Shown: positions 38,763 through 63,128 of the stretch, one piece after another
Layout: every line of letters starts with the position of its first letter
How positions within the stretch are numbered: position 1 is the first letter of the stretch
Source: Nitrospirota bacterium
GTDB lineage: Bacteria > Nitrospirota > UBA9217
Direction: 5' to 3'
NCBI GenBank assembly: GCA_963840455.1
Contig: CAWIYV010000004.1
Coordinates: 64,001-128,000 of the forward strand
Length of the DNA stretch: 64,000 nucleotides
Notes under the pieces: model-generated
What the model saw: only the letters and a program-made list of their open reading frames with translations
Database searches by the model: none
Told to the model about the DNA's origin: nothing
Position numbers and translations under genes: made by a program

Positions 38763-38782
38763 GAATGTATCTTCTCCAGATA

Positions 38783-39649: not shown

Positions 39650-39667
39650 GCTTCTAATCTTCATCTC

Positions 39668-42485: not shown

Positions 42486-42547
42486 ATTATAACATTGGTG
42501 TGACGGTTTACAGGGGAATCGCCATGCGGAGACATCGAAGTAGCTTA

Positions 42548-42634: not shown

Positions 42635-42775
42635 TTTTCTAATCAGGGATGGACCTAAGCAGGAAATGTCAATACCGAAGCCTAACCCCATACGGTCTTA
42701 TTCTATGCGGAGAGGGCGGCAAAGGAGGCAAAGATAGCAGCGAAAGCGGCTATTTGCAACAAAAGAGAGCTGACC

Positions 42776-43786: not shown

Positions 43787-43893
43787 TTGAAGCTCCCAAA
43801 AGCAAACTGCATGGAGCTTCGATCCTCAGGGTAGTCTTTATTCTAGTCGCTCGCTGAGCCCAAACTGCGGGGCTGAGCTCGCTCCTGGATTCA
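43787..43893 (+). repeat. ~110-bp MITE-like repeat (family C) copy
   Basis: ttgaagctccc...ttcgatcctcagggtag...tcgctcgct...gctcgctcctggattca; other copies at 44083-44197 (inverted), 44286-44373, 45694-45809, 46510-46703 (tandem pair) and 49847-49954. Confidence 0.88.
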
Positions 43894-43940
43894 CGGGATG
43901 CAGGGGCCCCTGGAAAGTCAGAGGCATTGGTCTTTTATCC

Positions 43941-44383
43941 AAGCCCCGCATGTCCCCGGCGCGGCCCTATGAAATTCCTGGGCCCCCGTCTTGGCCTAAG
44001 GCAGCGTCCCGCAGGGCGAACGCGCATGTCTGAGGCCGAAGGCCGAGTTTGCGCGGGCGAGCGGACGTAGATTAAGGGTCAGGAATCCAGGAGCGAGCCT
44101 ATTCCGCGTGCCTTACTGCGGGATCGGCGAGCGATTAGAATGATAAAACTTCCCTACGGATCTGAGATTCCCTGGAGCATGCTGCAGGGAACGTCAATTT
44201 CATTCAGGACGCGAAGGGGATATGCAAAAAATGAAATAATATACCCACTCACGTTTAACCCTCTTCCTCGGTCGCCTGCCTGGATTTGCTCCCAAGTGCA
44301 AACGGTAGTGGAGCTTTGATCCTCAAGGTTGTATGTTTATCCTAAACGCTCGCTATGCGCTCGCTCCTGGATTTTCGCATGGG
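43941..44383. repeat. Family AB copy 4, interrupted twice by family C
   Basis: B half broken at 44083-44197 and A fragment broken at 44286-44373; AB sequence resumes after each insert. Confidence 0.8.
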
Positions 44384-45652: not shown

Positions 45653-45693
45653 GTTCGTTCGCCTCCTTCTTTCTGCCGCCTTCCCTACTGCAA

Positions 45694-45809
45694 TTGAAGC
45701 TCCCTGTAGCAAGCTGCAGGGAATCTTCGATCCTTAAGGAAGTATCGTTATACTAATCGCTCGCTAACCCAGCGGCAAGCTACGGGGAATGCGCTCGCTC
45801 CTCGATTCA
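45694..45809 (+). repeat. Family C copy
   Basis: ttgaagctccctgtagcaagctgcagggaatcttcgatcc...gcgctcgctcctcgattca. Confidence 0.88.
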
Positions 45810-46091
45810 TCACAGCTTTCTGCAGGGATCTTAAATATAGTATACCACTGGAGGGCCGGCTTACCTGTGGATCTTCCCGCGGGGGACAGGACGGAGCATG
45901 CATCCGCGGGAATGTATGAGAAGTCAATGGCGCAGGAGAGTCGGAAGGAGCAATGACGGGAGAATATCATGATGTCAGGAAATCATGTCTGACCCGCTAC
46001 GATAAAAAAACATCTTGTTGTATTGTTGCGCATATTGTAATATATGCCCAAACGTATAAAGTCGGCCCGGGAGGGCCAACCAAGGAGGATC

Positions 46092-46509: not shown

Positions 46510-46703
46510 TTGAAGCTCCCTGCAGCAAGCTGCAGGGAATCTCCGATCCTCAGGGTAGAACTATATTATTCTCATCGCTCGCTCCTGGATTGAAGCTCCC
46601 TGAAGATAACGGCATGGAGCTTCGATCCTCAAGGTACCTCTTTATCCTCATCGCTCGCTAACCCCGCAGCAAACTGCGGGGAATGCGCTCGCTCCTGGAT
46701 TCA
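46510..46703 (+). repeat. Two tandem family C copies
   Basis: Head-to-tail junction ...gctcctggATTgaagctccc at about 46590. Confidence 0.85.
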
Positions 46704-49092: not shown

Positions 49093-49201
49093 GGCGGCTA
49101 ACCTATTAATATTTTCCCAGATACGCTGATGTCTTCACCAGGCGTTCTACAAACGCCTCATTTTCTCTGTCAAATGTAAAGACTTGATCCTATAGGTTTT
49201 A

Positions 49202-49261
49202 CTTCATGAACCACTTGGCAGATCAACAAGTCATCAATTCAAGTCTGACCCCCGACAGTCC
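49202..49261. repeat. Family E direct repeat, copy 1 (partial)
   Basis: cttcatgaaccacttggcagatcaacaagtcatcaattcaagtctgacccccgacagtcc. Confidence 0.88.
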
Positions 49262-49316
49262 TACCCAGATTCAAGTCTGACCCGATACGTCCGCACTAAG
49301 AGGTCCGGGCATACCG

Positions 49317-49844
49317 CTAGCCGACCTTGCCAGGATGTTCGCGCCGAACCATCTGGATAACCTCGTCCAGTTTCTGCAAAAAGCTTGACCTGTCGCGGCT
49401 GGAGAAGGGTGCCGGCCCCCCGGTGATCTCGCCGTTCCCACGCAGTTCTGCAAGCAGGTTACGGGTTGCGACCGCATCTCCGATATTTTCCTCGGTGAAG
49501 GCCTTCCCCGTATGGCCGATCGCGTACGCACCAGCTTTGATGCATCGGCTCGCGAGGAGAACATCAGCCGTGACCACGATGTCGAGGGGAGTGATATTGG
49601 CAACGATCCAGTTGTCGGCCTCATCGAGCCCATCGCCGACAACGTGAAGTACGATCCCATCCTCGGTGGGCACGCGCATCCAGGAGTTGGCCACCAGGGT
49701 GACACCTATAGCATACCTGGCTGCGACCCGGTAGACCTCTTGCTTCACCGGGCATGCGTCGGCATCTACGAAAATATTCAGCAATCGATATCCTTGTTTG
49801 ACAAACTCAGAAGGATCCAGTGAGGTTGTCTCCAGCCGATCCAT
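49317..49844 (-). CDS. YaiI/YqxD (DUF188) family protein
   Basis: IFVDADACPVK, EADNWI, VTADVLLA, GGPAPF..DR..F; true start may be about 60 nt downstream. Confidence 0.9.
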   Translation of the reverse strand: MDRLETTSLDPSEFVKQGYRLLNIFVDADACPVKQEVYRVAARYAIGVTLVANSWMRVPTEDGIVLHVVGDGLDEADNWIVANITPLDIVVTADVLLASRCIKAGAYAIGHTGKAFTEENIGDAVATRNLLAELRGNGEITGGPAPFSSRDRSSFLQKLDEVIQMVRREHPGKVG

Positions 49845-49846
49845 CG

Positions 49847-49954
49847 TTGAAGCTCCCGCCAGCAACGGCATGGAGCTTCGATCCTCAGGGTAGTAATTTA
49901 TTCTAATCGCTCGCTAACCCCGGTTACGGGGAATGCACTCGCTCCTCGATTCAA
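49847..49954 (+). repeat. Family C copy
   Basis: ttgaagctcccgccagcaacggcatggagcttcgatcc...ctcgctcctcgattcaa. Confidence 0.85.
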
Positions 49955-50042
49955 TTGTTGGGTCTTCTGACTTTCGTGTGGGCATGCAAAGTGTTTTTAA
50001 AGAATAATATGCTGAATTATCAGGCCTCAGACGACCTTCCAG

Positions 50043-50430
50043 CCACCTTTCTTGCTTGCCCGAAGAAAGGTGGAGCCAAAGAAGGGCACCCGGCGACCAT
50101 TCTGATCCGTCATGCTCGGTCGTCCTCAGTACATTTCAGAAACTCGGGCTTCGCCCTCAGACAGTCTGAAATGTTTAACCCTCGGACTCGGCCGCATGAC
50201 GGGAATGATCGCATGGGTGGAGGTCAACGGCTTTACAAGCTTTTACCCAAACCCCGCATGTCCCCGGAGCGGCCCTATGAATTTTCTGGGCACCCGTCTT
50301 GGCCAAAGGCAGCGTCCCGCAGGGCGCTGCGCACTGTCTGAGGCCGAAGGCCGAGTTTGCGCGGGCGAGCGGACGTGGCCTTAGTCGGGTCAGAAAATTC
50401 ATTCAGGACACGAAGGGGATATGCAAAAAA
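50043..50430. repeat. Family AB copy 6 (A-B)
   Basis: ccacctttcttgcttgcccgaagaaaggtgg...ctgtctgaggccgaaggccgagttt...tatgcaaaaaa. Confidence 0.9.
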
Positions 50431-50486
50431 AGTTACATGGGCGAATATTACCCACACAAAACCCGGAAGATCGCAATTTTTTTGAT

Positions 50487-51389
50487 CTAGTCAAGCGCCC
50501 CATGTTCTTTTGCAGTCTTGATCCAGTGTTCGGCCAGTTCGGCAGGATCTGCGCCCACACCACGGCCAAGGTGCAGCGCCAATCCCATCAATAATTCCGA
50601 TGCCTTGCGGAGATCGGTGACATTGTCCAGGGTGCCAAATGATCCTTGAGCTTTCAAAAGGAGGAGATCGTGATGCTGGCGAGAAAAAGCTGTGGAATCC
50701 TGTAAGCCATCCGCGAACACAGGGATCATCAACAGGTCGATCCACTCGGGACCAAGCCGGTCCTGCAATTGTTCTGGCTCTTCTCTGCCCATCTCTCGCC
50801 AGAGACGCAAGGTCTGCCGGTCACCCGATCCGGCCAAGCCACTTTCCAGCAGAAAGGCGAAAGCGCTGTCAGCTAAACGTTGCATCAGTTCGAGATACTC
50901 ATCCTGAGCAACTTCGAAGCGCTTCGCGGCCTGTGCTTCAATGTAGGCGGCAACACTCAATCGAGGCAGATCTAAAACTTCCGGACACCCTTCTATACAG
51001 GGGAAATCACTCCCTTGGTACAGGTAGTAAAGCTCCTCGCCCTGCCTTTGGCGGCCAAGAGGATACAACCGGCAGGCCAATGGGCGCCGCGAATGCACGG
51101 TGCAGCCGAGATCAGGTGCATACTGGCTACATGCCGGCTGCTGTCTCCAGCCGGGTGCACCATCAAAACGCAACTGGATGCCACCAAAATCGCAGTAACG
51201 ATCGCGAAACACCCTCGGTGTCATTCCTTTTGCTTCAGCCATACACGCCAGTTCCCACGGGTTCAACCAGACAGTTTTGCCATGACAGCAGGTGCCTGAA
51301 CGTGAACAGGTAAGCGGCAGAATATCAGTAAGGGTGAGTTTTGTCGTGACCGACATTGCGGGTTTTCCTTTTGTCTTCCCTTTGTTCAA
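50487..51389 (-). CDS. YkgJ family (CxxCxxCC-like) Fe-S/Zn cluster protein
   Basis: CSRSGTCC, C..Y, CTVHSRRPLACRLYP. Confidence 0.85.
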   Translation of the reverse strand: MNKGKTKGKPAMSVTTKLTLTDILPLTCSRSGTCCHGKTVWLNPWELACMAEAKGMTPRVFRDRYCDFGGIQLRFDGAPGWRQQPACSQYAPDLGCTVHSRRPLACRLYPLGRQRQGEELYYLYQGSDFPCIEGCPEVLDLPRLSVAAYIEAQAAKRFEVAQDEYLELMQRLADSAFAFLLESGLAGSGDRQTLRLWREMGREEPEQLQDRLGPEWIDLLMIPVFADGLQDSTAFSRQHHDLLLLKAQGSFGTLDNVTDLRKASELLMGLALHLGRGVGADPAELAEHWIKTAKEHGALD

Positions 51390-51401
51390 TTTCTCTCCTG
51401 C

Positions 51402-51950
51402 TCATCGGACTTCCGGCTGAGGCTGGGTCCTCTGCGGCTTGCGGAAAGCGCGGATGATCATGGGAACGACGAGCATCGCGGCAAGAACGATCCACATCGT
51501 TGTGTCGGGATCGCGGATGTACTGGTTCAGATGCAACGTCGCGACCGCAATGACCGCGTAATACAGCATGTCCCCGGCGATCGCAAAGAGCCAGCCCATG
51601 AGGAAGCCATGTCCCGCTGCCATCGCCGATGCCCGCCCGGTCATCGGGTCCACGCCAAAAGAGATCATAACGAGCGAAATGGGGCCTGCACCGGTGCCGC
51701 TTAAGTGTTGCGCGCTCCTGGCCGCTGCAGCCTTCATCCGTGCGCTGAGGCGGGCGAGGAAGGTCACCTTCCCCGCCACCCATGCGAGCAGTCGAAGGAC
51801 CGGCTCGAACGCGAGCGCGAGCAGAATGTCGGAGATCAGGTAGAGACCCGCGGTCACGGGCCAGACCAGCCCCTTATCACGAGCGAGCAAAACGCCGGCC
51901 GGGATCCCGCCGCCGACAGGGATGAGGAAGAGCATCAATACGGAGAGCAT
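51402..51950 (-). CDS. Hypothetical membrane protein
   Basis: MLSVLMLFLIPVGGGIPAGVLLA..., four or five hydrophobic segments; truncated duplicate at 57427. Confidence 0.75.
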   Translation of the reverse strand: MLSVLMLFLIPVGGGIPAGVLLARDKGLVWPVTAGLYLISDILLALAFEPVLRLLAWVAGKVTFLARLSARMKAAAARSAQHLSGTGAGPISLVMISFGVDPMTGRASAMAAGHGFLMGWLFAIAGDMLYYAVIAVATLHLNQYIRDPDTTMWIVLAAMLVVPMIIRAFRKPQRTQPQPEVR

Positions 51951-52011
51951 GGGGGATACTAACAAAACAGACAGGCAAAGGCAATCGAAGAAAGAGTATC
52001 GGACAAGTAGT

Positions 52012-52115
52012 AGCGTGTGATCGAACAACTACAGATCCACGTCTGACCCCAAACGCTTCATGACTCACTTGGCAGATTAACAAGTCATCAAGTCAAGTCT
52101 GACCCTCGACAGTCC
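52012..52115. repeat. Family E direct repeat, copy 2
   Basis: gcgtgtgatcgaacaactacagatccacgtctgaccccaaacgcttcatga...caagtctgaccctcgacagtcc. Confidence 0.9.
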
Positions 52116-52127
52116 TTATTAGTTCAT

Positions 52128-52568
52128 CTATAGTTCTTTCACTTCCACTCGGGCTTGAGTCCATGTATGCCGGCAATTCTTGCAACTCATATGATCCGTG
52201 TAACCCGTTCTCATGACCGGGACGATTACTTCTTTTTCAATAGTCCTGATGATCTGACCTTTTGCATTTTTCACACGCTCAGTCAGCTTCTTCGTCTTAG
52301 TACCTTTTTCCCGTCCATTCTGTACAGAAGATTCTAGTTTAGCAACGAACCAATAGCTGCATGACGGACAACGCAAAGTCTGCCCCCAATAATAATACCC
52401 TGCTGAAATGAGTGCGCACGCAGCACCGATTAGTTCCGCGATCCGTATTTTTGACCCCGCGTCCCCGGGAGGAAGTCCATGGAAATACCGCCATGCTAAA
52501 TTGACACCGAAAAGCGCCGGAAGAATGATAAAGAGCAGCCAACGCACACCAGGACGCATTTTGTTCAT
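52128..52568 (-). CDS. Two-TM protein with C-terminal Zn ribbon
   Basis: Two TMs, CPSC ... CKNC; ATGA overlap with the upstream gene. Confidence 0.75.
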   Translation of the reverse strand: MNKMRPGVRWLLFIILPALFGVNLAWRYFHGLPPGDAGSKIRIAELIGAACALISAGYYYWGQTLRCPSCSYWFVAKLESSVQNGREKGTKTKKLTERVKNAKGQIIRTIEKEVIVPVMRTGYTDHMSCKNCRHTWTQARVEVKEL

Positions 52569-53302
52569 AGGTCATTTCCTCCATCCAGCGTATTTGCTTT
52601 CTTAATCAAAAACGTCGACGGTTGTATACTAGCCGCCGCTATATCCCACAAAAGAATATGTTTTCGAAACAACTGACTGAATTCATCCTCGAATCTTTCC
52701 AGATATTGAGCCACCTTCTTGAAGGTTATGATCGATTCACCATCAGGACCCGGTTGCAGATAAATAACCTTAATGTCCGTCCTGATATTTTCGATCGAGA
52801 TACACGATATGGCATCTGATACTCGTTTCCGATCCTTTGTATAGAGATAGTCTTCGATCTCCTTTTGGGCGCGCATCGTAATGAATCCAAGGTCCTGTAA
52901 CATCACCATAAGATGGTAATACTTCTTTTTTTGTATTGTCGCTTTAAACACCGGCACCAATTGAAAAAGGATGTCCTGGAATCTCATGTTGGATGCGCTG
53001 ATGAGATAGGCGTCTTGTTTCTCCCTACGAGATCCCAGGTCGGTCTTCAATTCGACAAAATACGCAGTATGTAGGTCCCTGCTAAACAGCACATAATCTA
53101 CATTCACGGTTCTCTGCGATCCGGGATCATCAATGAGTGGAAATTCAGGGATGATGCATTCTGCAAGGGAGGATGCAGGTGCGATATATTCCTCCAGAAG
53201 GCCTTTCAAATAGAGCGAGAAGAAAATATCGGCGCGTCTTTCCAGCTGATATTTGGGAAGATTCCGCCAACGCGTGAGGTTATTGAATATCGTATCGAGC
53301 AT
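52565..53302 (-). CDS. Putative PD-(D/E)XK nuclease-like protein
   Basis: LERRAD, PEFP, VDYVLF..YFVELKT, QDAY pattern. Confidence 0.6.
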   Translation of the reverse strand: MLDTIFNNLTRWRNLPKYQLERRADIFFSLYLKGLLEEYIAPASSLAECIIPEFPLIDDPGSQRTVNVDYVLFSRDLHTAYFVELKTDLGSRREKQDAYLISASNMRFQDILFQLVPVFKATIQKKKYYHLMVMLQDLGFITMRAQKEIEDYLYTKDRKRVSDAISCISIENIRTDIKVIYLQPGPDGESIITFKKVAQYLERFEDEFSQLFRKHILLWDIAAASIQPSTFLIKKANTLDGGNDL

Positions 53303-53359
53303 TCCAGTAGTTCCGCCCTGCATATGTTATCCTTCCAGTCATCGCCTACGTGATTCTTG

Positions 53360-54601
53360 CTATATTTCTAGGATCTGTCCGTCCGGCACTACCCGTACAT
53401 TGTGAAATAGATCGGAATACTCGTGTCCAAATTCTGTATGGATGGGAATAAGCTGTTTCGGTTTCAAAGCCGCTTCGAACACCTGTAGATCTTCAGTTGT
53501 CGCATGGCCGCTCGTATGCGCGTAAATGAAGTTAACATCCTTATCCTGACGGTATGCAGAAAGCTTGTCAGCACCTGCGAGACCGCTCCCTGCGCTATCG
53601 ACATATCCGAGCCATTGCGAATATATAACGTTCACAGGCTTCTTACCCTTAAATCGTTCGATGAGATTCGCCCGCGATGCCTTGATCAGATAAAGATAAT
53701 TCGAAGGATATTCCTTGAGCTCTTCACGCCGAACACGGTACTGATAGACCTTCCTTCGAAAACCTGCGAACACGGAAGGATGTTCTCTCATGACCTTGTC
53801 GTGTGCGTGGTCAGCATAGACACGCAGGTTATCCCACCCGATCGACGGGGTATGGCAGGAAACGCTTTGGACACATTCCAGAACCCAAGTGGTATACAGA
53901 TCCAGTACGAGTGTCTTGCCAGCCCTTTTGCAGGCATTGTACGCTGAAACGATCCGATCAATGTTCTGCGACGATGAGATCAGGAAGGATATGTTCTCCT
54001 GCGACCTGATCGTCATATATATCATGTCCTCGACCGCGCGTTCTGTCGAATACTCGGTATTGTCCCTGCGGATCATCGTGCCTTCCATCAGGAGCACATC
54101 GATGTCTTTCGGCGGCTTCTCTGTTAGTTTATCGAATAGTATCGATTTTCTCCCATGGGAACGGAAATCTCCACTGTAGAAAATCCTCTTGTTCTCGGCC
54201 TCCACCAGGAACGCATAGGCATCAACTGCAGAGTGGTCCATAAGATAAGGCGTAATGCTGAAGTCTCCGATCCGAATAGGCGTCCATTTTTCAAAGAACC
54301 GGAACGGGTTCCCCAGCGGGCCCATGCCGAGGAATATGCGGGTCACATCGATTAGCTGTTTCGCCAAAGCACCGATATAGACTGGTACAGCTTTGTCAAG
54401 AATATCGAGGAGTCCATAATGATCCTGATGAGGGTGACTGATGATCACCGCGTCGGGCTTCAAGGACAGGATATTTGCATTATCGCGCTCATCATTGCTC
54501 AACGGTCGACCCATATCGAGAAGCAGTGTTGTCTCACCGGATGTTAGTTGAATGCAGGTACCTCCGATTTCATGGGCACCCCGATGTATTACAATTCTCA
54601 T
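53360..54601 (-). CDS. MBL-fold beta-CASP (RNase J-like) nuclease
   Basis: EIGGTCI, SHPHQDH, DHS, SGDFR, HTSGHA and PIH motifs. Confidence 0.88.
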   Translation of the reverse strand: MRIVIHRGAHEIGGTCIQLTSGETTLLLDMGRPLSNDERDNANILSLKPDAVIISHPHQDHYGLLDILDKAVPVYIGALAKQLIDVTRIFLGMGPLGNPFRFFEKWTPIRIGDFSITPYLMDHSAVDAYAFLVEAENKRIFYSGDFRSHGRKSILFDKLTEKPPKDIDVLLMEGTMIRRDNTEYSTERAVEDMIYMTIRSQENISFLISSSQNIDRIVSAYNACKRAGKTLVLDLYTTWVLECVQSVSCHTPSIGWDNLRVYADHAHDKVMREHPSVFAGFRRKVYQYRVRREELKEYPSNYLYLIKASRANLIERFKGKKPVNVIYSQWLGYVDSAGSGLAGADKLSAYRQDKDVNFIYAHTSGHATTEDLQVFEAALKPKQLIPIHTEFGHEYSDLFHNVRVVPDGQILEI

Positions 54602-54758
54602 ACTTTTCTCAATTCGGGTGCTGTCTGCGGACAGACTAAATACTGAGAACTACGCTAAGTGAGGATTAGGATGACATGGGAATGCCAAGATACAGAAGTT
54701 TCCTATTGCCATGAGAGTACTATAACTAGGATGAAATGGCAATTGAAGAAACAAATCG

Positions 54759-56168
54759 TGTCAAGCCCAAGCAGAAATGTCGTATTCTTACCAAAGCAGA
54801 AATGTCCTGTTTTAAGAGGTGCTGGACACTGCTGTCTTTTCTTTCTGATCGAGGTTAAGGGGCGCTCTCCACGGATGTGCCCCTGCCGGCTTTCCCCTAT
54901 CCCAAGTCTTGTGCAGCTTCAGCGACTCCCTACGTTCTTTTTCCGGCCGGGCAGTAATCTTCTGAAACCTCAAGCGTTGCCCATTATGCAGAATCCGCAT
55001 TGAACCATCCGTCCGCTCTTCCACCAACACCTTCTTAGCCCGGATATTGTCTTTGATCTGATAGAGCTTCTTGTCATGAGCAATGGTGAAGTCATTGCGC
55101 AATGCCCGCACGGTCCGAATGGACAATATCCGTTCCAACTCCCTGCGATCTGTAAACGGTCGGTGGAGATCCGTGTCCTTCGCCGGAGATACCCGATATC
55201 TCTGATTGTAGCCAGGCAAGTAGGTTTCCAAAAACGCATTCCCCTCGTCTTTACTTCTGATGCCTGCTAGCCGCATTTCTTTTATCACCCGGTCCTGAAA
55301 TGTCCCGAATAACCGCTCCACCCGCCCCTTGGCTTGCGGAGAATAGGCATGGATCACCGTCACGCCGAGTTCCTGAAGGCTTCTTTCGAACTGGCTCATG
55401 AGCTGTCGGCCTTCAAGCTGGTCTTCGATCGTCTGATACTGAACCGGCGCTTTATAGGTCGAATGGCGGTCTAAATACACGCTCTGAGGAATGCCGTACT
55501 GCCTGATATATCCTTTGAAGCTGTCCATGGCTGGAAGCGTACCTTCGTAATCATAGAACCTGGCGTATACTTCACCGGTGGCATCGTCCACGTATCCCAT
55601 CAGTACGCAGACCGGGCCGCGGCCCTCAAACCAGTCGTGGTGGGAACCGTCCAACTGCACCATGGCGCCCCGGCATGCTTTCCGTTCCCGCCACTGCCGG
55701 TGCGGCCGCCTCTTGCGCTGCCGGTACGGCAACCCTGCCTCAAGAAACCAGGTCCGCAGGGTCTCAACGCTTACCTTGATGCAGTTCTTCTCCCGAAGCT
55801 TTTCGCTCGCGAGGGTAGGACCAAACTCATGGTAGCGTTCGCGGCAAAGTTCGATTACCGTGTCTTTGACCGTCTCCGCTATCTGGTTGTTGGGCTTCCT
55901 CCCCCGAGCACAATGGCAAACCCCGGCATCGCCTTCCCTCCTGACACGCCGAATGATCCGCTGCAGCTGTCGAAGGCATAAACCAGCCATATCTGCCGCC
56001 TCTGCTTGGGTTATCCTTTTCTCTACGGCTTTACGAACAAGATGTAACCGCTTTGCTTCCTTCATGCTCATCGTGATAATGCCTCTCCCCATCGTGCCCT
56101 CCCTTGACGGAAGGACAATACGACATTTCTGCCTGGGAGAAATACGACATTATCACTTTGGAAGAACA
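54759..56168 (-). mobile_element. IS1202-family (ISNCY-type) insertion sequence, 1410 bp, 16-bp target duplication
   Basis: TGT...ACA ends, each carrying two AATGTC-core repeats; TTGAAGAAACAAATCG at 54743-54758 and 56169-56184. Confidence 0.88.
54812..56092 (-). CDS. DDE (rve) transposase
   Basis: FGPTLASEKL, VQLDGSHHDWF, VDDATG, YLDRHS, PQAKGRVERLFGTFQDR. Confidence 0.95.
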   Translation of the reverse strand: MGRGIITMSMKEAKRLHLVRKAVEKRITQAEAADMAGLCLRQLQRIIRRVRREGDAGVCHCARGRKPNNQIAETVKDTVIELCRERYHEFGPTLASEKLREKNCIKVSVETLRTWFLEAGLPYRQRKRRPHRQWRERKACRGAMVQLDGSHHDWFEGRGPVCVLMGYVDDATGEVYARFYDYEGTLPAMDSFKGYIRQYGIPQSVYLDRHSTYKAPVQYQTIEDQLEGRQLMSQFERSLQELGVTVIHAYSPQAKGRVERLFGTFQDRVIKEMRLAGIRSKDEGNAFLETYLPGYNQRYRVSPAKDTDLHRPFTDRRELERILSIRTVRALRNDFTIAHDKKLYQIKDNIRAKKVLVEERTDGSMRILHNGQRLRFQKITARPEKERRESLKLHKTWDRGKPAGAHPWRAPLNLDQKEKTAVSSTS

Positions 56169-56262
56169 TTGAAGAAACAAATCGGCCGGAGAGATTTTCT
56201 CTCCGGCCATATAGATTAAGCAATGATAAGAATCTCAATCTTTAAGTCTGATCCCATACGAC

Positions 56263-56443
56263 CTCGGGCGTGCCGGCTTGCTATGTCGCGTTCGTCGTCT
56301 ATCACGAGATGCTGAACGCCGACATAGGGGTTACACTGCGGGGAAAACGAAGGAGCGTGCATCCGAAGGAGTTCAGGAGAAGGGAAAAGCTCTTTCAGGA
56401 GTATGAGAAGGCGATGGCGTGGGAGGGTGGGCAGGCGCAATAA
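56263..56443 (+). pseudogene. 3' fragment of a SprT/M48-like metalloprotease gene
   Basis: GVPACYVAFVVYHEMLNADIG...RRSVHPKEFRRREKLFQEYEKAMAWE*; HEMLN where HExxH is expected; no 5' part. Confidence 0.65.
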
Positions 56444-56495
56444 CTACAGATTCATATTTTACCCAGGCACCCAACAGGAGCTAACAGCCAACATT

Positions 56496-57341
56496 TCATC
56501 TTTTCAGGCCTGACCCGCTACCGTCATTGAAGCTGTCATCCGTGAGATCAAAAATGTCCATGGAAGACATATCAATGGTAATAGTAATATCATCACTCGA
56601 ATCTCCAGTGCATCCTGCGGGAACAATGTAGAATGGATGTGCTGGATTGGTTAGAACAGCATCTATAAGTTGCTCATCTAATCCGATGCGCAACAAATAA
56701 CCCTTTCGATCCTCTTCCCAATGTGCGTTGTCAAACATGAAATCGAGGACCGATGGCTCTTGCTCTAGTATCGGTTCAAGTTTCAGTAGTTCGTCAGATG
56801 AATAATAACTAGCTGGATGTTGGTCGTGCTTCCTATTGTTGCAAGTTGAGCACAAAGCTACCAAATTACCGGGGACTAAGTGCCCGCCCAGAACGACGGG
56901 AATATGATGATCAATTTCTAGCCACATTGAAGATCCACATTTAAAGCATCGATTGTTAAAGAGAGAAAAGAATTTGTTTTTGTAATGACAGGCGATTACC
57001 GGAAATTGATAGTGTCTCCAAAAGTCAGACTTCTCTTTGCTTCTTAGCCGCTTCATTTCTTCCACTGTCATGGTCGTCAGTGCTGCAGCACGCAGCATTT
57101 CACGTGGATTTATGATCTTTTCTTCCCGAACACCAAAGTATGCTGCAACATCACGGGTGATTTCACCGCTCGGCAGCTCAATGACCGAAACAATCCTTTC
57201 AATCTTGAATGCTCGTCTGGCTTGCTGCATGTGACAGAAGGCCATTATGAAATATGGCTTTTCTACGACAACATCAGAGATAAGTCTTTCTGAGGTTTCA
57301 CTACCTCCGCCGTCGCGATATTTAATTATGAGATTACTCAT
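56496..57341 (-). CDS. WYL-like domain + HNH endonuclease
   Basis: N-terminal IKYRDGGG..SERLI..AFCH...RAFKIERI; C-terminal CFKC..IDHHIP..GG..NLVALCSTCNNRK. Confidence 0.75.
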   Translation of the reverse strand: MSNLIIKYRDGGGSETSERLISDVVVEKPYFIMAFCHMQQARRAFKIERIVSVIELPSGEITRDVAAYFGVREEKIINPREMLRAAALTTMTVEEMKRLRSKEKSDFWRHYQFPVIACHYKNKFFSLFNNRCFKCGSSMWLEIDHHIPVVLGGHLVPGNLVALCSTCNNRKHDQHPASYYSSDELLKLEPILEQEPSVLDFMFDNAHWEEDRKGYLLRIGLDEQLIDAVLTNPAHPFYIVPAGCTGDSSDDITITIDMSSMDIFDLTDDSFNDGSGSGLKR

Positions 57342-57426
57342 TAGGCGGTCATAAAGGGCAAGGCGTCATATGCTACAGAGTGTCAACGCATCAATATGGA
57401 TAGCGGACAATAGACAAATCAACAAC

Positions 57427-57675
57427 TCAAGCCTGACCCCAAACCGTCCCTGCAGCCTTCATTCGTGCGCTGAGGCGGGCGAGGAACGGGACCTTCCTCG
57501 TCACCCATGCGAGAAGTCGAAGGACCGGTTCGAACGCGAGCGCGAGCAGGATGTCGGAGATCAGATAGAGACCCGCGGTCACGGGCCATGCCAGCCCCTC
57601 ATCACGAGCGAGCAAAACGCCGGCCGGGATCCCGCCGCCGACAGGGATGAGGAAGAGCATCAATACGGAGAGCAT
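57427..57675 (-). pseudogene. Truncated duplicate of 51402..51950
   Basis: Near-identical to KAA, then runs into the GGGGTCAGGCTTGA motif, which supplies the stop. Confidence 0.85.
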
Positions 57676-57737
57676 GGGGGATACTAACAAAACAGACAGG
57701 CAAAGGCAATCGAAGAAAGAGTTTCGGACAAGTAGTC

Positions 57738-57840
57738 GCGTGTGATCGAACAACTACAGATTCAAGTGCGACCCCAAACGCTTCATGAACCACTTGGCAG
57801 ATCAACAAGTCATCAAGTCAGGTCTGATCCGCGACAGTCC
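57738..57840. repeat. Family E direct repeat, copy 3
   Basis: gcgtgtgatcgaacaactacagattcaagtgcgaccccaaacgcttcatgaaccacttggc...gcgacagtcc. Confidence 0.9.
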
Positions 57841-57863
57841 TCGACAGTCAAAGGTCGTCATAA

Positions 57864-58556
57864 TCAGAAGCCGTGATTACGAAGCCAGTTGGACAAAGAG
57901 CTATTCGGGCTATGTGGTTTTGAATTATACGCTTCGCACAAAGAGGTGTAGAGATTATCGTACCATTGCTTTACCTCTTGATGGTAATTGGGGTCGCGTT
58001 CATCGATAGCGGAGTTTAACCAATTTCTAACTTGGATTTCTTCGGGCCACTCTCCATTGTAGCTTGGCAATCGTCCAAGTTGTCGATAACAAATTTTACA
58101 AATAGCAAACGACTCTTGCCATGCTGCAATATTATCAGTAATATTCCAATCTTTTGAACATTGGCGATATATTTGTTTATATTTTTTATCAAAATCGAGA
58201 TTTGAATCGACAATTGATTGTACATGTCCATCCTTTACTATTGCTAATAGCAGTCCGTTAATCGAATTATGAATCGCTGTTTCAATGTTGTTAGCTTTTT
58301 TGTCACCCTCTACAGCGAGCCAGCCAAACCAACCACCGCGGTACGATTGACTGACTTTTTTTGCTTTACTACTATCTAGAATCATCATCACTTTTCGTCC
58401 ATAGCGTGGCCCCGCAAGTATTTCCAATGATAATACGATACCAGTATTGACTATTGATTCTGCATCAAGACGAACGACATATTTACCATCAGTAAGAATG
58501 TCTGTGTGATTTGAAGACCCCTGCCGTGTTTCGCTCATATGGTCCTCCAAGATCAT
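57864..58556 (-). CDS. Hypothetical protein (AT-rich, no recognised motif)
   Basis: 230-aa ORF filling the space between repeats E3 and E4. Confidence 0.6.
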   Translation of the reverse strand: MILEDHMSETRQGSSNHTDILTDGKYVVRLDAESIVNTGIVLSLEILAGPRYGRKVMMILDSSKAKKVSQSYRGGWFGWLAVEGDKKANNIETAIHNSINGLLLAIVKDGHVQSIVDSNLDFDKKYKQIYRQCSKDWNITDNIAAWQESFAICKICYRQLGRLPSYNGEWPEEIQVRNWLNSAIDERDPNYHQEVKQWYDNLYTSLCEAYNSKPHSPNSSLSNWLRNHGF

Positions 58557-58687
58557 AGATAGAACTAAAACTTATCTCAAAATCGCTTTAGAAGCTCTTA
58601 GCGTAATTTGAGGGGCAAGTCTTGTATTGTGCAATTTTGCTACAAATGCATGAGGAAAGACTTGACCCTAATGAAGGGATAGGTCAT

Positions 58688-58791
58688 AGCGTGTGATCGA
58701 GCAACTACAGATTCAAGTGTGCCCCCAAACCCTTCATGAACCACTTGGCAGATCAATATGTCATCAAATCAAGTCTGGCCCTCGACAGTCC
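58688..58791. repeat. Family E direct repeat, copy 4
   Basis: gcgtgtgatcgagcaactacagattcaagtgtgcccccaaacccttcatgaaccacttggc...ctcgacagtcc. Confidence 0.9.
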
Positions 58792-58897
58792 AAGGACCTG
58801 GAAGACCCCAGAATGTAACCTTGGCCCTCTAACGTCCACTTGAGAACGATCAACATCTCATAAACTCAAGCCTGACCAACTTCCATTCCACAAAGAC

Positions 58898-59773
58898 CTA
58901 ATGCAAGACCCGATCCAATAAGATTGCGAAAGCGTGATGATTAAGCAACAATTTATAATCCGCGCATAGCGCCAACTCCCTATGAAGATTATCACGTGTG
59001 TGCGAATCAAGGCTTAGTCCTCTTTCTCGAAAATACCAAGCTAAAAGTGCTATAAGGTCGTGGCCGTGGATATGGAATTTGTGGTCAGTCTTCAACCTTT
59101 TCCTCAGCTGATCCACTTCTTGTAAAAACTCATTCTTCTGAGAATACCTTCTATTTTTTGATAAGAAGCGATCTATGTAATCATCGGCGTCGAAAGATAT
59201 CTTCCACCCCTCGAGTTTCATGCAAACGGGTTTATCAAGCCAGTCCATATACCAACCCAAAGTGTGATTCGCCATCCTCAGGAGAAAGAGTTCACTTAGC
59301 GTACTGGCTATTGTTATCAGGATAGTACCAATAGGCCAATCACTACGCCCATAGTATACTGTGATCAGTTTTTCGAGAATGGCACTCTCAAACAAGTAGG
59401 CTTCCATGCACGCGAAGTCAGTGTATACAAGACAGGGTTTTTCTAAGATATCACCTAGAACATGGCTAAAGTCCGCGTCTACAAAGCAAGTGATCTGCTT
59501 AGCATGCTTTCCAAAGCGCTCTTCAACTATGAATGATAAGTAGATCACGCGTCCCCGGTTGTTGCCCTTTAGCCCCATGCGCAGAACTTCTTCTTCAGGA
59601 ATCTCAACTGTGGCTATTTCATAGACACCAGCCGATGCCACGCCGACCGTGCGGAAGAACCAGCGAATTATTGCCGCGTCAAAAGAGCCCTCAACATAGA
59701 CATCTCTACGTATCGGATGTCGTTCATATAGAAAACACAATTCACTTAACTTACGTCTGGGTATTGTACTCAT
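58898..59773 (-). CDS. TOPRIM (DUF4435-like) protein, AriB-like
   Basis: VYVEGSFD, CFVDADF (DxD), MEAYL, HGHDL; ATG at 59773, 2 nt after the ATPase stop. Confidence 0.75.
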   Translation of the reverse strand: MSTIPRRKLSELCFLYERHPIRRDVYVEGSFDAAIIRWFFRTVGVASAGVYEIATVEIPEEEVLRMGLKGNNRGRVIYLSFIVEERFGKHAKQITCFVDADFSHVLGDILEKPCLVYTDFACMEAYLFESAILEKLITVYYGRSDWPIGTILITIASTLSELFLLRMANHTLGWYMDWLDKPVCMKLEGWKISFDADDYIDRFLSKNRRYSQKNEFLQEVDQLRKRLKTDHKFHIHGHDLIALLAWYFRERGLSLDSHTRDNLHRELALCADYKLLLNHHAFAILLDRVLH

Positions 59774-59775
59774 GG

Positions 59776-61122
59776 CTAGTTCTCTGAGGCTTTTATATTC
59801 TCTAGCGGCGCAACATAATCTCGATATTGAGAGAGTATCTCGATTGAATGAGTTGCCAGCATTATTTGAAAGGCAGTACCTGACAGGCAAGTCGTCAAGG
59901 CTGGAATAAGTCTACGCTGCCACTCTACATTTAAAGAAATCTCTGGCTCATCAATAATAAGGATTGTCCCTTCTCGCCGTGCACTAATCGCATTACAGAG
60001 AAGCAGCAGAAGCTGTTTTTCACCTGAAGATAAAACGGCAGGATTCAACTGATTGCCTTTGTCGGATTTCAATACAAGTCCCTCGTCTAAATGGATCGTG
60101 GCATTCTTATGAGCATAGAATTCATTGAGGAGTGATACAAAGCTCTCCATGACTCTCTGTAATTCCTGCAATGCGTCTAGGCGCGCCTTATGTCCTTCTA
60201 GATATGGCCCAAGGACTGTTCTCAGAATACTTAAGCGTTGCGAACCCGCATCTGCTAAAGGACCAGTGAGCATGGCGATGTCGAGTTCTGGCGTAAGTCC
60301 AAATTTTGCAAATGTGGCATTTCTTTGCCCCAGCCGTTCAAGATCTGCTATTAAGTTTTTCAGCGTTTCTCCCGCTTGTGCCCCGGGCTCACTACCATAA
60401 GTCACTACGCGCTGAATAATATCTTTATAGATTGAATGCACTGATGTGTAGCCTACATTTGTGCCTGATAAAGCTTGTTTCCGAAACCACTCTACCGCTC
60501 CTTCTATTGACATCCTAAGTTGTATATCTGTACTTGTCGCTTTCTCCTCCTCACCCTTTATAACGATGCGTCCCTCTTCAATTTCGCTAAGCAAGCTTCG
60601 ATGCATGGCATATCGTCTTTCCTCACTCCGGCCTTCGAGTCTTCTTGTATCTCGCAAATAATGAAATGTGATCCCCAAATCATTTAACAATTGGCAAAGC
60701 CTTTCGTATTCTTTGTCTTCCTTCTTTTTTGTCTTATCAGGGATCCAAGTCCATTTGGCGATTTCTTTCTTATCCTTACTCAATGTAATATCATATGGGC
60801 CAGGGTCCGGACTCTTAGCTCTACTCGCAGAAATAGTAAGGCCTGAAGTTAACTTAATATCAAATCGAGAAAAAGGAATTTCTCCGATATATGATCTGTG
60901 ACCGCCAAAAGGCTCTGGATTCATCAGATGATAGATAAGATTTAAGAGTGTTGTTTTACCAGCACCATTTTCTCCATACAAAAGAAGCAGCTTTCCCGAT
61001 TCGGGTCCTGGTGTCGTCGCCGCAGTGAGACGATATGTGAAAGTGTTGAAAAGATCTTCTACATAGATTTGGTCAATTAAAGAAATCTTAGTTCTTTCGT
61101 CTACTTTGATCGTATTTGCCAT
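59776..61122 (-). CDS. ABC/AAA_15-21-type ATPase, AriA-like
   Basis: Walker A GENGAGKT, signature LSSGEKQ, Walker B IIDEPEISL, ATHS. Confidence 0.88.
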   Translation of the reverse strand: MANTIKVDERTKISLIDQIYVEDLFNTFTYRLTAATTPGPESGKLLLLYGENGAGKTTLLNLIYHLMNPEPFGGHRSYIGEIPFSRFDIKLTSGLTISASRAKSPDPGPYDITLSKDKKEIAKWTWIPDKTKKKEDKEYERLCQLLNDLGITFHYLRDTRRLEGRSEERRYAMHRSLLSEIEEGRIVIKGEEEKATSTDIQLRMSIEGAVEWFRKQALSGTNVGYTSVHSIYKDIIQRVVTYGSEPGAQAGETLKNLIADLERLGQRNATFAKFGLTPELDIAMLTGPLADAGSQRLSILRTVLGPYLEGHKARLDALQELQRVMESFVSLLNEFYAHKNATIHLDEGLVLKSDKGNQLNPAVLSSGEKQLLLLLCNAISARREGTILIIDEPEISLNVEWQRRLIPALTTCLSGTAFQIMLATHSIEILSQYRDYVAPLENIKASEN

Positions 61123-61313
61123 TGTGGCCTCCAATTCCCGGCAGGGAAATTTCTTTAAAGGCTGCAGACTCAATCGTTTAGCTGTCTTTGAGCGAACGCA
61201 ATGCCACCTTTGAATGGGTTGTTACTTAGGAACATTTAGGGCCAGATCTCTTTTTTTTGCAGATGCCTATTAGCGCTCTTGCTTAGGTTCGGACATCTTT
61301 GGGTACGTTGTTT

Positions 61314-61469
61314 TTACCTGCGCTTTCCTGCCGTTCTCCTGCCTGCCTTCCGCTTTCTCCCCGCTTTTGTCTTCGCCGCCCTCTTCTTTGCTTTCTTCTT
61401 CTTCGCCTTCTTCTTCGGCGCATGCCAGTTCCGCGGGATCGGCTGCAGCATGCTGATGCGGTTGCCCTC
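61314..61469 (-). pseudogene. VOC-like 3' fragment / small Lys-rich peptide, copy 1
   Basis: EGNRISMLQPIPRNWHAPKKKAKKKKAKKRAAKTKAGRKRK...*; second copy at 62974. Confidence 0.6.
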
Positions 61470-61473
61470 GTGC

Positions 61474-61947
61474 TTACTGGAGTTTGGTCAATATCAGATC
61501 CCAGCGTTCCAGCCACTGCTGGCTTCCTTCTGTAAAACAGTTTTGGACATCCGACCAATATGCAATAAATTTATAGACCTCTTCATCATTGCTATGAATC
61601 ATTTTAAGAGCGTCCACCGGAAGGACAAAGAACGCGTGCTTATCAAACCAATAAGCCACAATGAAATCACTTGAATTCTTCTCATTCGGCGTCACGGTAA
61701 AATGGACAGCATTTCGATTCGTTCGATCCGTAACTACATTCTGACGAGTCTTTACTTCAATCTTAATTTGTGAAATATCATGGTTGCTGTCTAAACGCTG
61801 TAAAACCAAATCGCAACCTGTTTCAGTATAATTCTTAAACAATGTCCAGCCCGGCTTATCTTGCATTCGCATGGCCAAGTTTAAGAGAACTGCGCCTTCA
61901 CCAACCTCCTGCAATAACGCCTTCAAATTTTGCGATAACTGCGCCAT
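61474..61947 (-). CDS. Putative PD-(D/E)XK nuclease
   Basis: EVGEGAV, GCDLVL..KIEVKTRQ, DFIV pattern. Confidence 0.65.
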   Translation of the reverse strand: MAQLSQNLKALLQEVGEGAVLLNLAMRMQDKPGWTLFKNYTETGCDLVLQRLDSNHDISQIKIEVKTRQNVVTDRTNRNAVHFTVTPNEKNSSDFIVAYWFDKHAFFVLPVDALKMIHSNDEEVYKFIAYWSDVQNCFTEGSQQWLERWDLILTKLQ

Positions 61948-62087
61948 CCCGCCCCCCCCCACGAAACCTTTAGGGTACCAGCCCGGGGTCAGTACCAGCC
62001 CAGGGTCATGCTTAATTATTGAGATTCGGGTCGGTTGTAGGTCAAGTTCCAGAATTCACCTTCTCACCCGCCAGGCCTACCCCATCC

Positions 62088-62915
62088 TCACATCCTCCAC
62101 TCGATCTTCGGCGCATTCCTGGGCACCAGCCGCTGGTACCGGTACTTCGGATATCCCGCCATCAGGACGCCATGGACAGCGTTGTCCGCGGGGACCTTCA
62201 GGGCCTCCCGGAGCGGCTGCCATTGGAGCAGTCCCACCATGACGAAACCGGCCCAGCAGGCACCGAGGCCGAACGTGGGCGCTGCAAGGTCGAAGTAAGC
62301 GAGCGCCGAGGTGCAGTCAACGGCGCCCAGTCCGTAGGCCTTCGGCGCATGGGCAAAGACGAGCACCGGGGCCCCGCGGGTGACGCCGTCTGCCCCGATC
62401 TCCCAGTCCGCCACGACGCGGTCGAGACGGTAGCTCAGCGCTATCGGGGCCTTTGCCTTTACCAGCTCCCGCATGTGATCAACGACCATGCCGGCCAGCT
62501 TCTTCACCTCGTCGCGGGAATTGACGACGAGCCAGCTTACGAGCTGGCTGTTCCCGCCGGTGGGCGCGTACCGCGCAATCTCGATCAGCTTCTGGAGCTT
62601 CTCCTGCTCAACGCGCTTGTCCTGATACGTGCGGATGGAGCGGCGGGAGCGGAGGAACTGCTCGGCCTGTGCAGGCGACAGGCTGAGCGCCCGGTCGAGT
62701 GTAGGGAAGTCCTCGTGCTTCAGCATCGAATGGGTGAACGCACCGTGCGGACAGACGGCGACGCAGTGGCCGCACCGGATGCATCGCTCCGCCGCGTCCG
62801 GCGTCGGCACCGGTGTCGAGGAGGCATCCTTCATCGCGATGATCTTGATGGGGCATTCGGCAACGCAGATGCCGTCCCGTTTGCATTTCTTATCGTCGAT
62901 CGTAAACAGGCTCAT
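62088..62915 (-). CDS. Ferredoxin-nitroreductase fusion
   Basis: CKRDGICVAECP, CIRCGHCVAVCP, SRRSIR, APTGGNSQ, GLGACWAG. Confidence 0.93.
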   Translation of the reverse strand: MSLFTIDDKKCKRDGICVAECPIKIIAMKDASSTPVPTPDAAERCIRCGHCVAVCPHGAFTHSMLKHEDFPTLDRALSLSPAQAEQFLRSRRSIRTYQDKRVEQEKLQKLIEIARYAPTGGNSQLVSWLVVNSRDEVKKLAGMVVDHMRELVKAKAPIALSYRLDRVVADWEIGADGVTRGAPVLVFAHAPKAYGLGAVDCTSALAYFDLAAPTFGLGACWAGFVMVGLLQWQPLREALKVPADNAVHGVLMAGYPKYRYQRLVPRNAPKIEWRM

Positions 62916-62973
62916 GAAGCCTCCTTGAAGCCCCGGGAGCGAACCCCTGCGGGTCAGGTCTTTACCGTTAGTA

Positions 62974-63128
62974 TTATCCTCGTTTTACTGCCGTTCTCCT
63001 TACTGCCTTCCGCTTTTTTCCCGCTTTTGTCTTCGCCGCCTTCTTCTTTGTTATCTTCTTCTTTGCCTTCTTCTTCGGCGCATGCCAGTTCCGTGGAATG
63101 GGCTGCAGCATGCTGACGCGGTTGCCCT
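62974..63128 (-). pseudogene. VOC-like 3' fragment / small Lys-rich peptide, copy 2
   Basis: GNRVSMLQPIPRNWHAPKKKAKKKITKKKAAKTKAGKKRK...*. Confidence 0.6.

Follow-up and report, generated by a model that had tools for sequence, protein, structure and literature searches.

Orphan terminal inverted repeats of a TIRtron family at module borders in a low-GC island of a Nitrospirota genome

Closest described systems and the present locus

Genes for Y1 transposases with long terminal inverted repeats (TIRs) were named TIRYTs, and the complete units TIRtrons, by Di Nocera, De Gregorio & Rocco 2013 (PMC3733652); the accessible part of that paper describes a GGGGWSAS motif shared among TIRs and "moderately abundant families of TIRs", many of them "organized as REPs in dimers or clusters", where REP stands for repetitive extragenic palindrome. 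In the accessible part of a later phylogeny (Quentin et al. 2018, PMC6006769) TIRYTs are subclass 2.1 of TnpA_REP, with tails of the Bac_DnaA_C, HTH_23 or HTH_28 type. Within the literature searched these were the only two papers that mention TIRYTs; no experiments on TIRYTs binding, cutting or moving TIRs were found there, and no TIR core strings in the relevant papers, whose supplementary files and figures may list further TIR sequences. Here we describe an array of repeats in a window of 64,000 nucleotides (nt) from a Nitrospirota genome (positions 64001-128000 of contig C4 of genome G000, which comprises 4.03 Mb in 14 contigs with 58% GC; coordinates given without a contig are window positions). 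The repeats, including one of ~104 nt called repeat E, are well supported as the TIRs of a TIRYT element family. Taken as a whole, our reading is that they are orphan TIRtron TIRs whose ends served as join points of gene modules, and we hold it with moderate confidence.

As far as the accessible text of the two papers goes, the published families resemble the repeats studied here in having a Y1 HUH gene with a C-terminus of the Bac_DnaA_C/HTH_23 type and long inverted repeats that begin with GGGGWSAS, and in being moderately abundant and present as single units, dimers and clusters between genes. Unlike those families, the repeats of G000 are orphaned, concentrated in two low-GC islands and mostly placed in one orientation, and truncated genes, a duplication and breakpoints relative to related genomes are found at their outer ends (the GGGG ends). 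Moreover, the phylum Nitrospirota is not among the examples in the accessible parts of the published accounts.

REPs with their bacterial interspersed mosaic elements (BIMEs), and REPINs with the REP-associated tyrosine transposases (RAYTs), are likewise repeats outside genes that are associated with a domesticated HUH transposase of the Y1 type, inverted around its gene and clustered behind genes. REPs are also known targets of insertion sequences (ISs) and join points of duplications. The units of G000 differ from them in lacking a stable hairpin or a consistent GTAG/CGTC tag, in numbering 18 copies and not hundreds, and in forming direct tandem pairs, with one inverted pair at 58612-58668, whereas REPs form hairpin-forming inverted doublets. 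A REP identity was rejected, as the units lack a stable stem-loop (20-40 nt) that carries a GTAG or CGTC tag, and CTAC is found in some units only.

Integron arrays and clusters of attC sites lacking integron-integrases (CALINs) share with this locus the single orientation, the repeat after each stop codon, repeats that vary by segment and foreign cargo. In contrast to them, the array of G000 shows no attC palindrome (R and L boxes) and has no integrase gene in or beside it, its repeat belongs to an HUH transposon, and its segments hold several genes, fragments or nothing. Eight DNA folds of E and of the unit in 56430-56530, on both strands, gave z values of -0.63 to +1.58 against shuffled sequences and hence no hairpin signal. 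Because of this and because the cores of E are direct and not inverted, the units qualify as neither attC sites nor REPs of the hairpin kind, and an attC array or CALIN was rejected, the R''/L''-L'/R' boxes (RYYYAAC...GTTRRRY) having been sought by eye only. A CRISPR array, with a spacing of 25-75 nt, was rejected since the copies of E are spaced by 2854, 5725 and 951 nt. A first-pass annotation of the window had also reported that attC boxes and CRISPR spacing were missing.

The HUH transposons of the IS200/IS605 (IS608) and IS91/ISCR groups act on one strand, and the IS common region (ISCR) elements carry off neighbouring DNA from a single end. Neither group is known to have long terminal inverted repeats, and IS608 requires subterminal hairpins. 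What they have in common with the present system is an HUH tyrosine enzyme, and segments able to move could in principle be delimited by ends used in one orientation. To our knowledge, no IS608/ISCR-type mechanism has been demonstrated for any TIRYT.

Other identities were considered and rejected as well. The 38-bp, GGGG-initiated ends of the Tn3 family do not fit, since G000 has no match to PF01526 and conservation extends 6-10 nt beyond GGGG. Scars of tRNA or tmRNA 3' ends were discarded because the window contains neither a tRNA nor a tmRNA gene, and no Rfam family at gathering score. No promoter or terminator role could be assigned to E, inside which nothing of the kind was found on the relevant strand.

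Repeat E, the TIR unit and its parent element

Repeat E had been placed by the first-pass annotation at 49202, 52012, 57738 and 58688, each copy beyond the stop of a minus-strand gene, and repeat search, blastn and alignment confirmed this. The repeat search of the window returned a four-copy family starting at 49147, 52001, 57726 and 58677, and alignment with the flanks set the boundaries at 52012-52115 (E52), 57738-57840 (E57) and 58688-58791 (E58), the remaining copy (E49, 49202-49261) being the second half of E only. In the same alignment the similarity among all four copies drops directly past ...CGACAGTCC. In blastn comparisons with E57, identity is 90.5% for E52 (116 nt), 89.3% for E58 (103 nt) and 93.4% for E49 (61 nt), and each copy stands 12-107 nt left of a minus-strand stop (49317, 52128, 57864, 58898). 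The two cores noticed earlier in each full copy are a tandem direct pair of a ~37-nt unit, for which the iterated profile gave the consensus CAACAAGTCATCAATTCAAGCCTGACCCCATACGGTC; a short palindrome, TCAGGCCTGA, lies inside the units. E52 and E57 are not independent, because they are the ends of one 390-bp duplication (51725-52115 versus 57450-57840; segments D1 95%, D2 90%), which includes the first ~300 nt of a membrane-protein gene.

A profile of the TIR unit, built in two rounds from copies of G000 and its relatives and applied at E<0.01 for the genome count, detected 18 units on 5 contigs of G000, seven of them inside 9.7 kb of this array. The strong profile units of the window start at 49224, 52079, 56489, 57414, 57803, 58754 and 58851, weaker ones at 45966, 49269 and 56244 and faint ones at 42678, 52041 and 57760; all are on the + strand, the one inverted profile unit being a faint match at 61998. 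Lone cores in the same window had been listed before, and the profile supports those at 49269-49289, 56244-56261, 56489-56525, 57414-57448 and 58851-58877. The cores near 49180 and 58657 belong to a second TIR type, with 58612 as its inverted partner, and the cores at 58903 and 61238 have no profile support. Among the inverted ones, the core at 61986-62026 is weak in the profile (E 0.26) and conserved in genome G002, and that at 62951 resembles a TIR ahead of a decayed transposase stub. The second type, TGTCAAATGTAAAGACTTGAyCC, has nine matches in the genome at up to 5 mismatches versus none for the reversed pattern. The TIR is thus present as a dispersed family of single units, tandem pairs (E) and one inverted pair.

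Clustering by chance is excluded. An exact 13-mer of the repeat occurs four times in G000, three of these in the array. A 21-nt pattern matched 8 of 41 genomes (G000, 5/5 of the same genus, 2/19 others of the same family and 0/16 of other families), and its reversed form, used as a control, had no match in the genomes searched. A position at gene boundaries, for which the first-pass annotation had proposed a test, was seen in the profile scan: 13 of 17 first-profile matches lie between open reading frames (ORFs) of at least 70 amino acids (aa) or overlap ORF ends by no more than 32 nt, and the other four are inside short ORFs, two of the three scanned being without a Pfam match. Low-GC DNA lies alongside. 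The 1-kb flank beyond the outer end is in the lowest GC decile for 12 of the 18 units (6/11 outside the array) and the inner 1-kb flank for seven (2/11 outside the array). When a strand bias like that of single-strand transposons was looked for, the C-rich strand was seen to carry 14 of the 18, but only 7 of the 11 outside the array.

The parent element was recognised in other genomes. In the sister genome G005, one of the relatives compared here (G001 to G005), a gene of 313 aa has CGTATGGGGTCAGACTTGAC... in inverted copies on both flanks; CGTATGGGGTCAGACTTGACTTGTTGACTTAT stands at one end of the gene and recurs inverted at the opposite end. Its product matches Pfam Y1_Tnp (1.9e-14) and, at 27.1 bits and below the cut-off of 31.5, Bac_DnaA_C (4.3e-06), and the HVH and YIHKNP of the HUH motif and the catalytic tyrosine region are legible in the TIRYT protein sequence. 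A second copy in G005 has a perfect 24-nt inverted repeat, ATGGGGTCAGACTTAAAACATGAG, of the type of the window unit 56230-56261. A homologue in a Bacillota-type metagenome-assembled genome (MAG), 41.5% identical over 272 aa, has both TIRs as GGGGTCAGGCTTGA, which lies ~55 nt ahead of the start codon and returns as ...TCAAGCCTGACCCC after the gene, and a Desulfocapsaceae MAG has a shortened copy with the same two TIRs as the Bacillota-type locus. Both TIRs are present at four loci (L037 and L039 of G005, L072, and L086, which is internally deleted), and a fifth locus cut by its contig, L040, retains the 3' TIR.

Complete TIRtrons with this TIR are therefore found in the sister genome and in two other phyla, where inverted copies of the motif flank genes of the Y1_Tnp plus helix-turn-helix (HTH) type; the link to Y1/RAYT-like transposases that the first-pass annotation had mentioned proved correct, and the motif-flanked HUH gene that it proposed to look for exists at these loci. 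Both in the window units and beside the genes of G005, of the Bacillota-type MAG and of the Desulfocapsaceae MAG, GGGGTCAG fits GGGGWSAS (W=T, S=C, A, S=G). Through this locus a concrete TIR shared across phyla (GGGGTCAGRCTTGA...) is linked with the transposase subfamily to which it belongs. An 18-nt TIR pattern matched at least 120 stretches in many phyla, and by eye ~25-30 of the 84 matches listed share the subterminal part or a partner copy while eight resemble one conserved coding region. This spread alone proves nothing, since several hundred chance matches are estimated for 596 Gb.

G000 itself has only remnants of the transposase. A scan for Y1_Tnp revealed a degraded gene on C14 at a distance of 150 nt from a unit, which led to a family of ~330-aa genes with members in 42 of the 61 genomes of this bacterial family. 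The C14 copy is of a different subfamily, whose relatives have the TIR GGGACGTTG... in 6 of the 11 loci examined. The possibility that the motif is the coding tail of the degraded C14 gene was rejected because only the motif recurs and not the gene. The other remnants are a 25-codon stub (MARKPRIEYDGAFYRVITRGNQKQK) ~75 nt behind GGGATCAGGCCTGAAAAGAGGAAA at C11:830449-830644 and a frameshifted copy at C7:13762. With the transposase genes decayed, the repeats are orphans in G000, and any TIR activity is historical or came from outside, as the assembly has no intact cognate gene.

Two further observations concern Y1 genes. At C11:830300-830720 the N-terminal stubs of two TIRYT subfamilies (MARKPRIEYDGAFY... 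and MPRNTRPDAPGALHH...) stand head to tail within 120 nt, which suggests a nested insertion or recombination between two TIRtrons. A short Y1 transposase gene of the classical IS200 type, which contains an in-frame TAG, lies just downstream of a tRNA gene at C10:393728-394087 and has no relation to the TIR units.

Unit ends and module junctions

In the array, the joins of modules, of a truncated host gene and of an internal duplication lie flush with the GGGG ends of units, and the same is seen at an island on C14. The host gene encodes a SprT-like metallopeptidase, which is intact (230 aa) in G001, G002 and G004 (Pfam SprT-like on the G001 ORF) and is followed by a TIR unit in G002 and G004, the unit of G002 being split by an insertion of ~190 nt. 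In G000 only residues 174-228 survive (tblastn), from 56262 directly past ...TCTGATCCCATACG. This fragment, the last ~55 codons (56262-56440, + strand; blastn 87-89%), abuts the outer end of a + strand unit of the TTTAAGTCTGATCCCATACG type at 56230-56261 (profile E 0.025), which forms an inverted repeat with 62003-62027 and whose type also flanks the TIRYT gene at locus L039 of G005. Two older SprT-like tails, each then followed by a unit, lie on the + strand at 42.5 and 45.9 kb. The former is a decayed 3' tail with broken frame (42514-42634; blastn 80-84% to G001, G002 and G004) before a weak unit at 42678-42697 (E 0.49), and the latter extends over ~45880-45953 before a unit at 45966-46001 (E 0.0054).

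The duplicate at 57450-57840 (+ strand), composed of the 5' part of the membrane-protein gene and E57, begins directly past the unit 57414-57448 (+ strand, E 5e-07) and ends at the outer end of its own E. On the right side, the similarity between G000 and G002 at the nitroreductase flank starts at the inverted unit near 61989, beyond which the genes differ between the two genomes. The C14 island takes up 12 kb in G000 (six ORFs besides the degraded Y1 gene and an RHS module) versus ~1 kb in G001 and G005; facing units stand at both borders and one more inside, and the short alleles of G001 and G005 have none. At its right border the similarity to G003 (89% over 332 nt) starts exactly between TCGAG and GGTCAG, and the preceding 460-660 nt have no match between G000 and G003.

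A TIRtron of this family is an element of ~1.1 kb with one Y1 HUH transposase gene with a C-terminal HTH (the TIRYT) and inverted flanks that begin with GGGGTCAG. Its TIRs, like REPs, also spread without the gene, either singly or as tandem pairs or small clusters, in the spaces that follow genes, and repeat E is one such tandem pair. As a mechanism we suggest that the TIR ends may have been used as cut-and-join points at which modules were added, duplicated or replaced, either through a TIRYT active at that time or through short repeat homology, and joining at TIR ends would leave direct repeats in one orientation. That the ends were actual cut-and-join points or homology anchors is a step on which we find belief and doubt about evenly balanced.

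Several observations speak against this interpretation. The absence of a hairpin signal means that a single-strand hairpin mechanism of the IS608/REP type is not supported. The G005 protein scores 65.7 bits with REP_Tyr_transpos of NCBIfam, below the cut-off of 80 bits, and the adjacency of Y1 gene and unit on C14 is not cognate, since that subfamily has its own TIR. The G000 assembly contains no intact cognate transposase, only decayed stubs, and no gene of the Resolvase family (serine recombinases) was found in it; PF00589 identified four fragments and two full tyrosine recombinase genes, the latter on contigs other than C4 (at C1:189034 and C9:176679), with no match on this part of C4. The gap between the RibD_C and DUF188 genes holds three units in G000 and none in G001 with the same flanking genes, so units can move or vanish alone. 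Of the breakpoints between genomes, whose comparison the first-pass annotation had recommended, several are flush with GGGG ends, but this gap differs with no change of genes. In addition, the unit after the GH57 gene begins 22 nt past the stop, and the G001 similarity ends 24 nt ahead of the inner side of E52, so that neither junction is flush. Flushness is also partly built in, because a repeat on the conserved side will always end the similarity. Finally, the seven units of the array are one locus and not seven independent events, and some tandem units have no cargo between them.

The main rival holds that non-autonomous miniature repeats jumped as passive litter into AT-rich gaps after the island had formed and had no joining role, the coincidence with breakpoints resulting from preferred landing sites and from decay of the surrounding DNA. 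The three units of the RibD_C/DUF188 gap and the empty tandem units agree with this, as does the terminator-like hairpin (49140-49158) that precedes one unit, and the accessible part of PMC3733652 pictures TIR and REP families as dispersed extragenic repeats. Litter does not readily explain why seven units in one orientation lie in 9.7 kb versus 11 in the remaining 4 Mb, why the truncation of a host gene and of a duplicated segment falls precisely at TIR ends, or why a unit stands at both borders of the C14 island. Moreover, given the difference of 7-13% among copies of E and the long-standing decay of the cognate gene, many late jumps into one island are difficult to reconcile with the data. 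We consider this explanation unlikely, if deserving of real weight. A live system is improbable in our view, namely a recombinase or HUH enzyme encoded elsewhere that moves TIR-bounded cassettes as an integron does with attC sites. It would account for the one-orientation array with a unit after each gene's stop, for TIR variants that differ from module to module, for breakpoints at TIR ends, and for the direct units around the RHS module on C14 and the tandem pairs around 2.2 kb of orphan genes in G005. Set against it are a cognate Y1 gene of which G000 retains only decayed stubs, the lack of a Resolvase-family gene and of a Tn3 transposase in G000, full tyrosine recombinase genes on other contigs only, the lack of an attC-like fold, and segments that comprise 0 to 3 genes, gene fragments or an IS. 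The array is not an integron and nothing indicates present activity, and the active capture system acting in trans that the first-pass annotation had proposed was not upheld.

Attachment-site scars would arise if a tyrosine integrase had inserted islands serially into the 3' end of the SprT-like gene, duplicating its tail together with the site. Three SprT-like tails in one orientation, each then followed by a unit (42.5, 45.9 and 56.3 kb), and the unit after the intact gene in G002 and G004 are what this would predict; it is nevertheless very improbable, as no integrase gene lies in or beside the array, most units (E52, E57, E58, 57414, 58851) have no gene tail, and in other genomes the units flank a Y1 transposase gene and not an integrase gene. 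We give hardly any credence to a regulatory or RNA function, for which selection would have kept the units after genes as terminators, promoters or small RNAs, for example. Their location behind genes and their short palindrome would suit such a role, which is contradicted by the lack of an Rfam family at gathering score in the window, by folding no better than that of shuffled sequence, by the lack of terminator-like or minus-strand promoter-like sites inside E and by the fact that the units are the inverted ends of a transposase gene.

Cargo, other repeats and significance of the locus

From 48.5 to 52.0 kb, that is from RibD_C to the membrane-protein gene, the window is backbone, with the gene order of G001 (G001:C67, 88-91%). 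A second-type TIR unit, TGTCAAATGTAAAGACTTGATCC, was found here by pattern search at 49168-49196 (+ strand), followed on the same strand by the half copy of E, with its unit at 49224-49260, and the short unit at 49269-49289 (49202-49289 together; blastn, profile and alignment). By Pfam and synteny the backbone genes on the minus strand (49317-52028) encode a DUF188 protein (49317-49871), a CxxCxxCC protein (50487-51389) and the membrane protein (ORF 51402-52028). E52 follows on the + strand and, by blastn, profile and alignment, consists of a weak unit ending at 52055 and a strong one at 52079-52114.

Between 52 and 62 kb, foreign genes, chiefly for nucleases and defence, form a low-GC island, and the AT-richer cargo described by the first-pass annotation is evident from its 41-50% GC versus 58% for the genome. 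The cargo begins on the minus strand (52128-54601, GC 0.45-0.48) with genes of 146 aa, 252 aa and 413 aa, the latter for a nuclease-like protein of the MBL/beta-CASP type (Pfam Lactamase_B_2 6.1e-13 and RMMBL; NCBIfam RNase J family under its cut-off). An ISNCY-family IS follows at 54757-56169 (minus strand), with a transposase gene at 54812-56092 (transpos_ISNCY_2, 377.6 bits, cut-off 250) and inverted ends of 21 nt at 54766-54786 and 56117-56137. The IS and its transposase gene had been overlooked in the first-pass annotation. The IS is probably active now or was so recently, because two other copies (C2:15877-17289 and C11:761134-762543) are 100% identical.

Beyond the SprT-like fragment, a + strand unit of the AACATTTCATCTTTTCAGGCCTGACCC type (56489-56525, E 9e-10), with near-identical copies of ~25-28 nt on C11 and C14, overlaps the last codons of the minus-strand WYL-HNH nuclease gene (56496-57341; Pfam HNH 1.7e-10). 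The WYL-HNH protein is full length compared with eight homologues, and just its last ~9-17 residues run into the TIR; it has a 79%-identical relative (P0002), and no close relatives were found with single-protein patterns in the genome contigs. The overlaps of units with the gene ends GSGLKR, WGQA and DRVLH (each directly before a stop) read as originally claimed. Past the duplicate with E57 (57738-57840; 95%/90% to 51725-52115) comes a minus-strand gene of 230 aa and 41% GC (57864-58556) of no known family, whose product has no match in Pfam, PADLOC or NCBIfam, the resources used for the cargo, and which is present in only one of 301 genomes of the phylum, G000 itself. The gene lies between E57 and E58, ahead of an inverted pair of second-type units with outer ends directed outward (58612-58668), which was read directly from the sequence and resembles a miniature gene-less TIRtron. 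E58 (+ strand; blastn, profile and alignment) has its strong unit at 58754-58790.

A + strand unit at 58851-58877 (E 1.1e-04) is 21 nt from the stop of the AriB-like gene (58898-59890), which with the gene for an AriA-like ATPase (59776-61173) makes up a PARIS-like pair on the minus strand (PADLOC AriA 3.5e-25, AriB 7.2e-07). The AriA-like protein occurs in two of 64 genomes of the family, the other copy being 33% identical. On the same strand, a 162-aa gene (61474-61962) has a weak PD-(D/E)XK-like match (Pfam PDDEXK_5 0.0026, under the cut-off), and inverted TIR-like units, GGGGTCAG...GGGTCATGCTTAATTATTGAGATT, occupy 61985-62027 (minus strand), where their inverted repeat partner supports them and the G002 similarity begins. 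A last inverted unit, GGGTCAGGTCTTTACCGTT (62951-62969, minus strand), upstream of the nitroreductase gene, was found by reading, remained undetected by the profile and resembles the sequence ahead of the decayed stub at C7:13762.

Other repeats are present in this part of the genome. The inverted TIR units lie, together with the PD-(D/E)XK-like gene and the nitroreductase gene, between the two copies of a 163-bp direct duplication (88%; 61306-61468 and 62966-63128), of which one copy is adjacent to the nitroreductase gene in G005; this is a second instance in which duplicated flanks of a few hundred bp enclose a segment. An interspersed repeat of 190-390 bp at 50044-50431 (also at 43800-44230 and 38305-40037), with internal inverted arms (50140-50165 and 50333-50358), has dozens of copies at 76-93% in G000 and is also found in G001, G003, G004 and G005; it looks like a miniature inverted-repeat transposable element unrelated to the TIR units. 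Two short repeat families of ~117 and ~128 bp (45693-45809 and 46576-46703; …TTGAAGCTCCCTG(C/T)AGCAAGCTGCAGGGAAT…) have many copies each, at 84-94% identity, in all five same-genus genomes.

Units adjoin gene modules at other loci too. In the 12-kb C14 island a gene of 1548 aa with RHS repeats, followed by a 142-aa gene with a weak DUF6795 match under the cut-off (C14:231514-236602 together; L012:5514-10602), sits between two direct TIR units, as does the second gene. A low-GC cluster at C11:854745-859674 (L016:9745-14674), with a DndB-like gene, a split SNF2-type helicase gene and two unknown genes, starts 34 nt from the outer end of a unit whose inner end is 31 nt from an IS110-family element. 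Targeting of the units by IS110 was rejected, since a second IS110 copy has no adjacent unit. In G005 (C11:18394-20689; L032:6394-8689) two direct tandem TIR pairs frame 2.2 kb of orphan minus-strand genes in the layout seen in the window, and an orphan gene of 341 aa is overlapped at its 3' end by the second of these pairs. The best public sequencing run contains 0.12 of the sampled words.

The repeats of this family stand at the seams of two islands of foreign genes, flush with truncated genes and with breakpoints relative to sister genomes, and in the literature searched no link between TIRs and island seams has been printed. A more far-reaching proposal, which we regard as rather improbable, is that HUH transposases of the TIRYT type run a cassette system of their own, in which a single TIR would suffice for cutting and rejoining and a TIR-bearing circle or strand would join a chromosomal TIR. 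If this were true, one-orientation arrays of foreign modules (here defence genes), each with its own TIR variant, would represent an HUH-based counterpart of the integron across several phyla. Should the units be litter only, they would be an ordinary orphan repeat family. If, on the other hand, their ends are joining points, they would add an HUH-enzyme route to the assembly of defence islands and would provide a sequence handle for island borders in Nitrospirota and other phyla.

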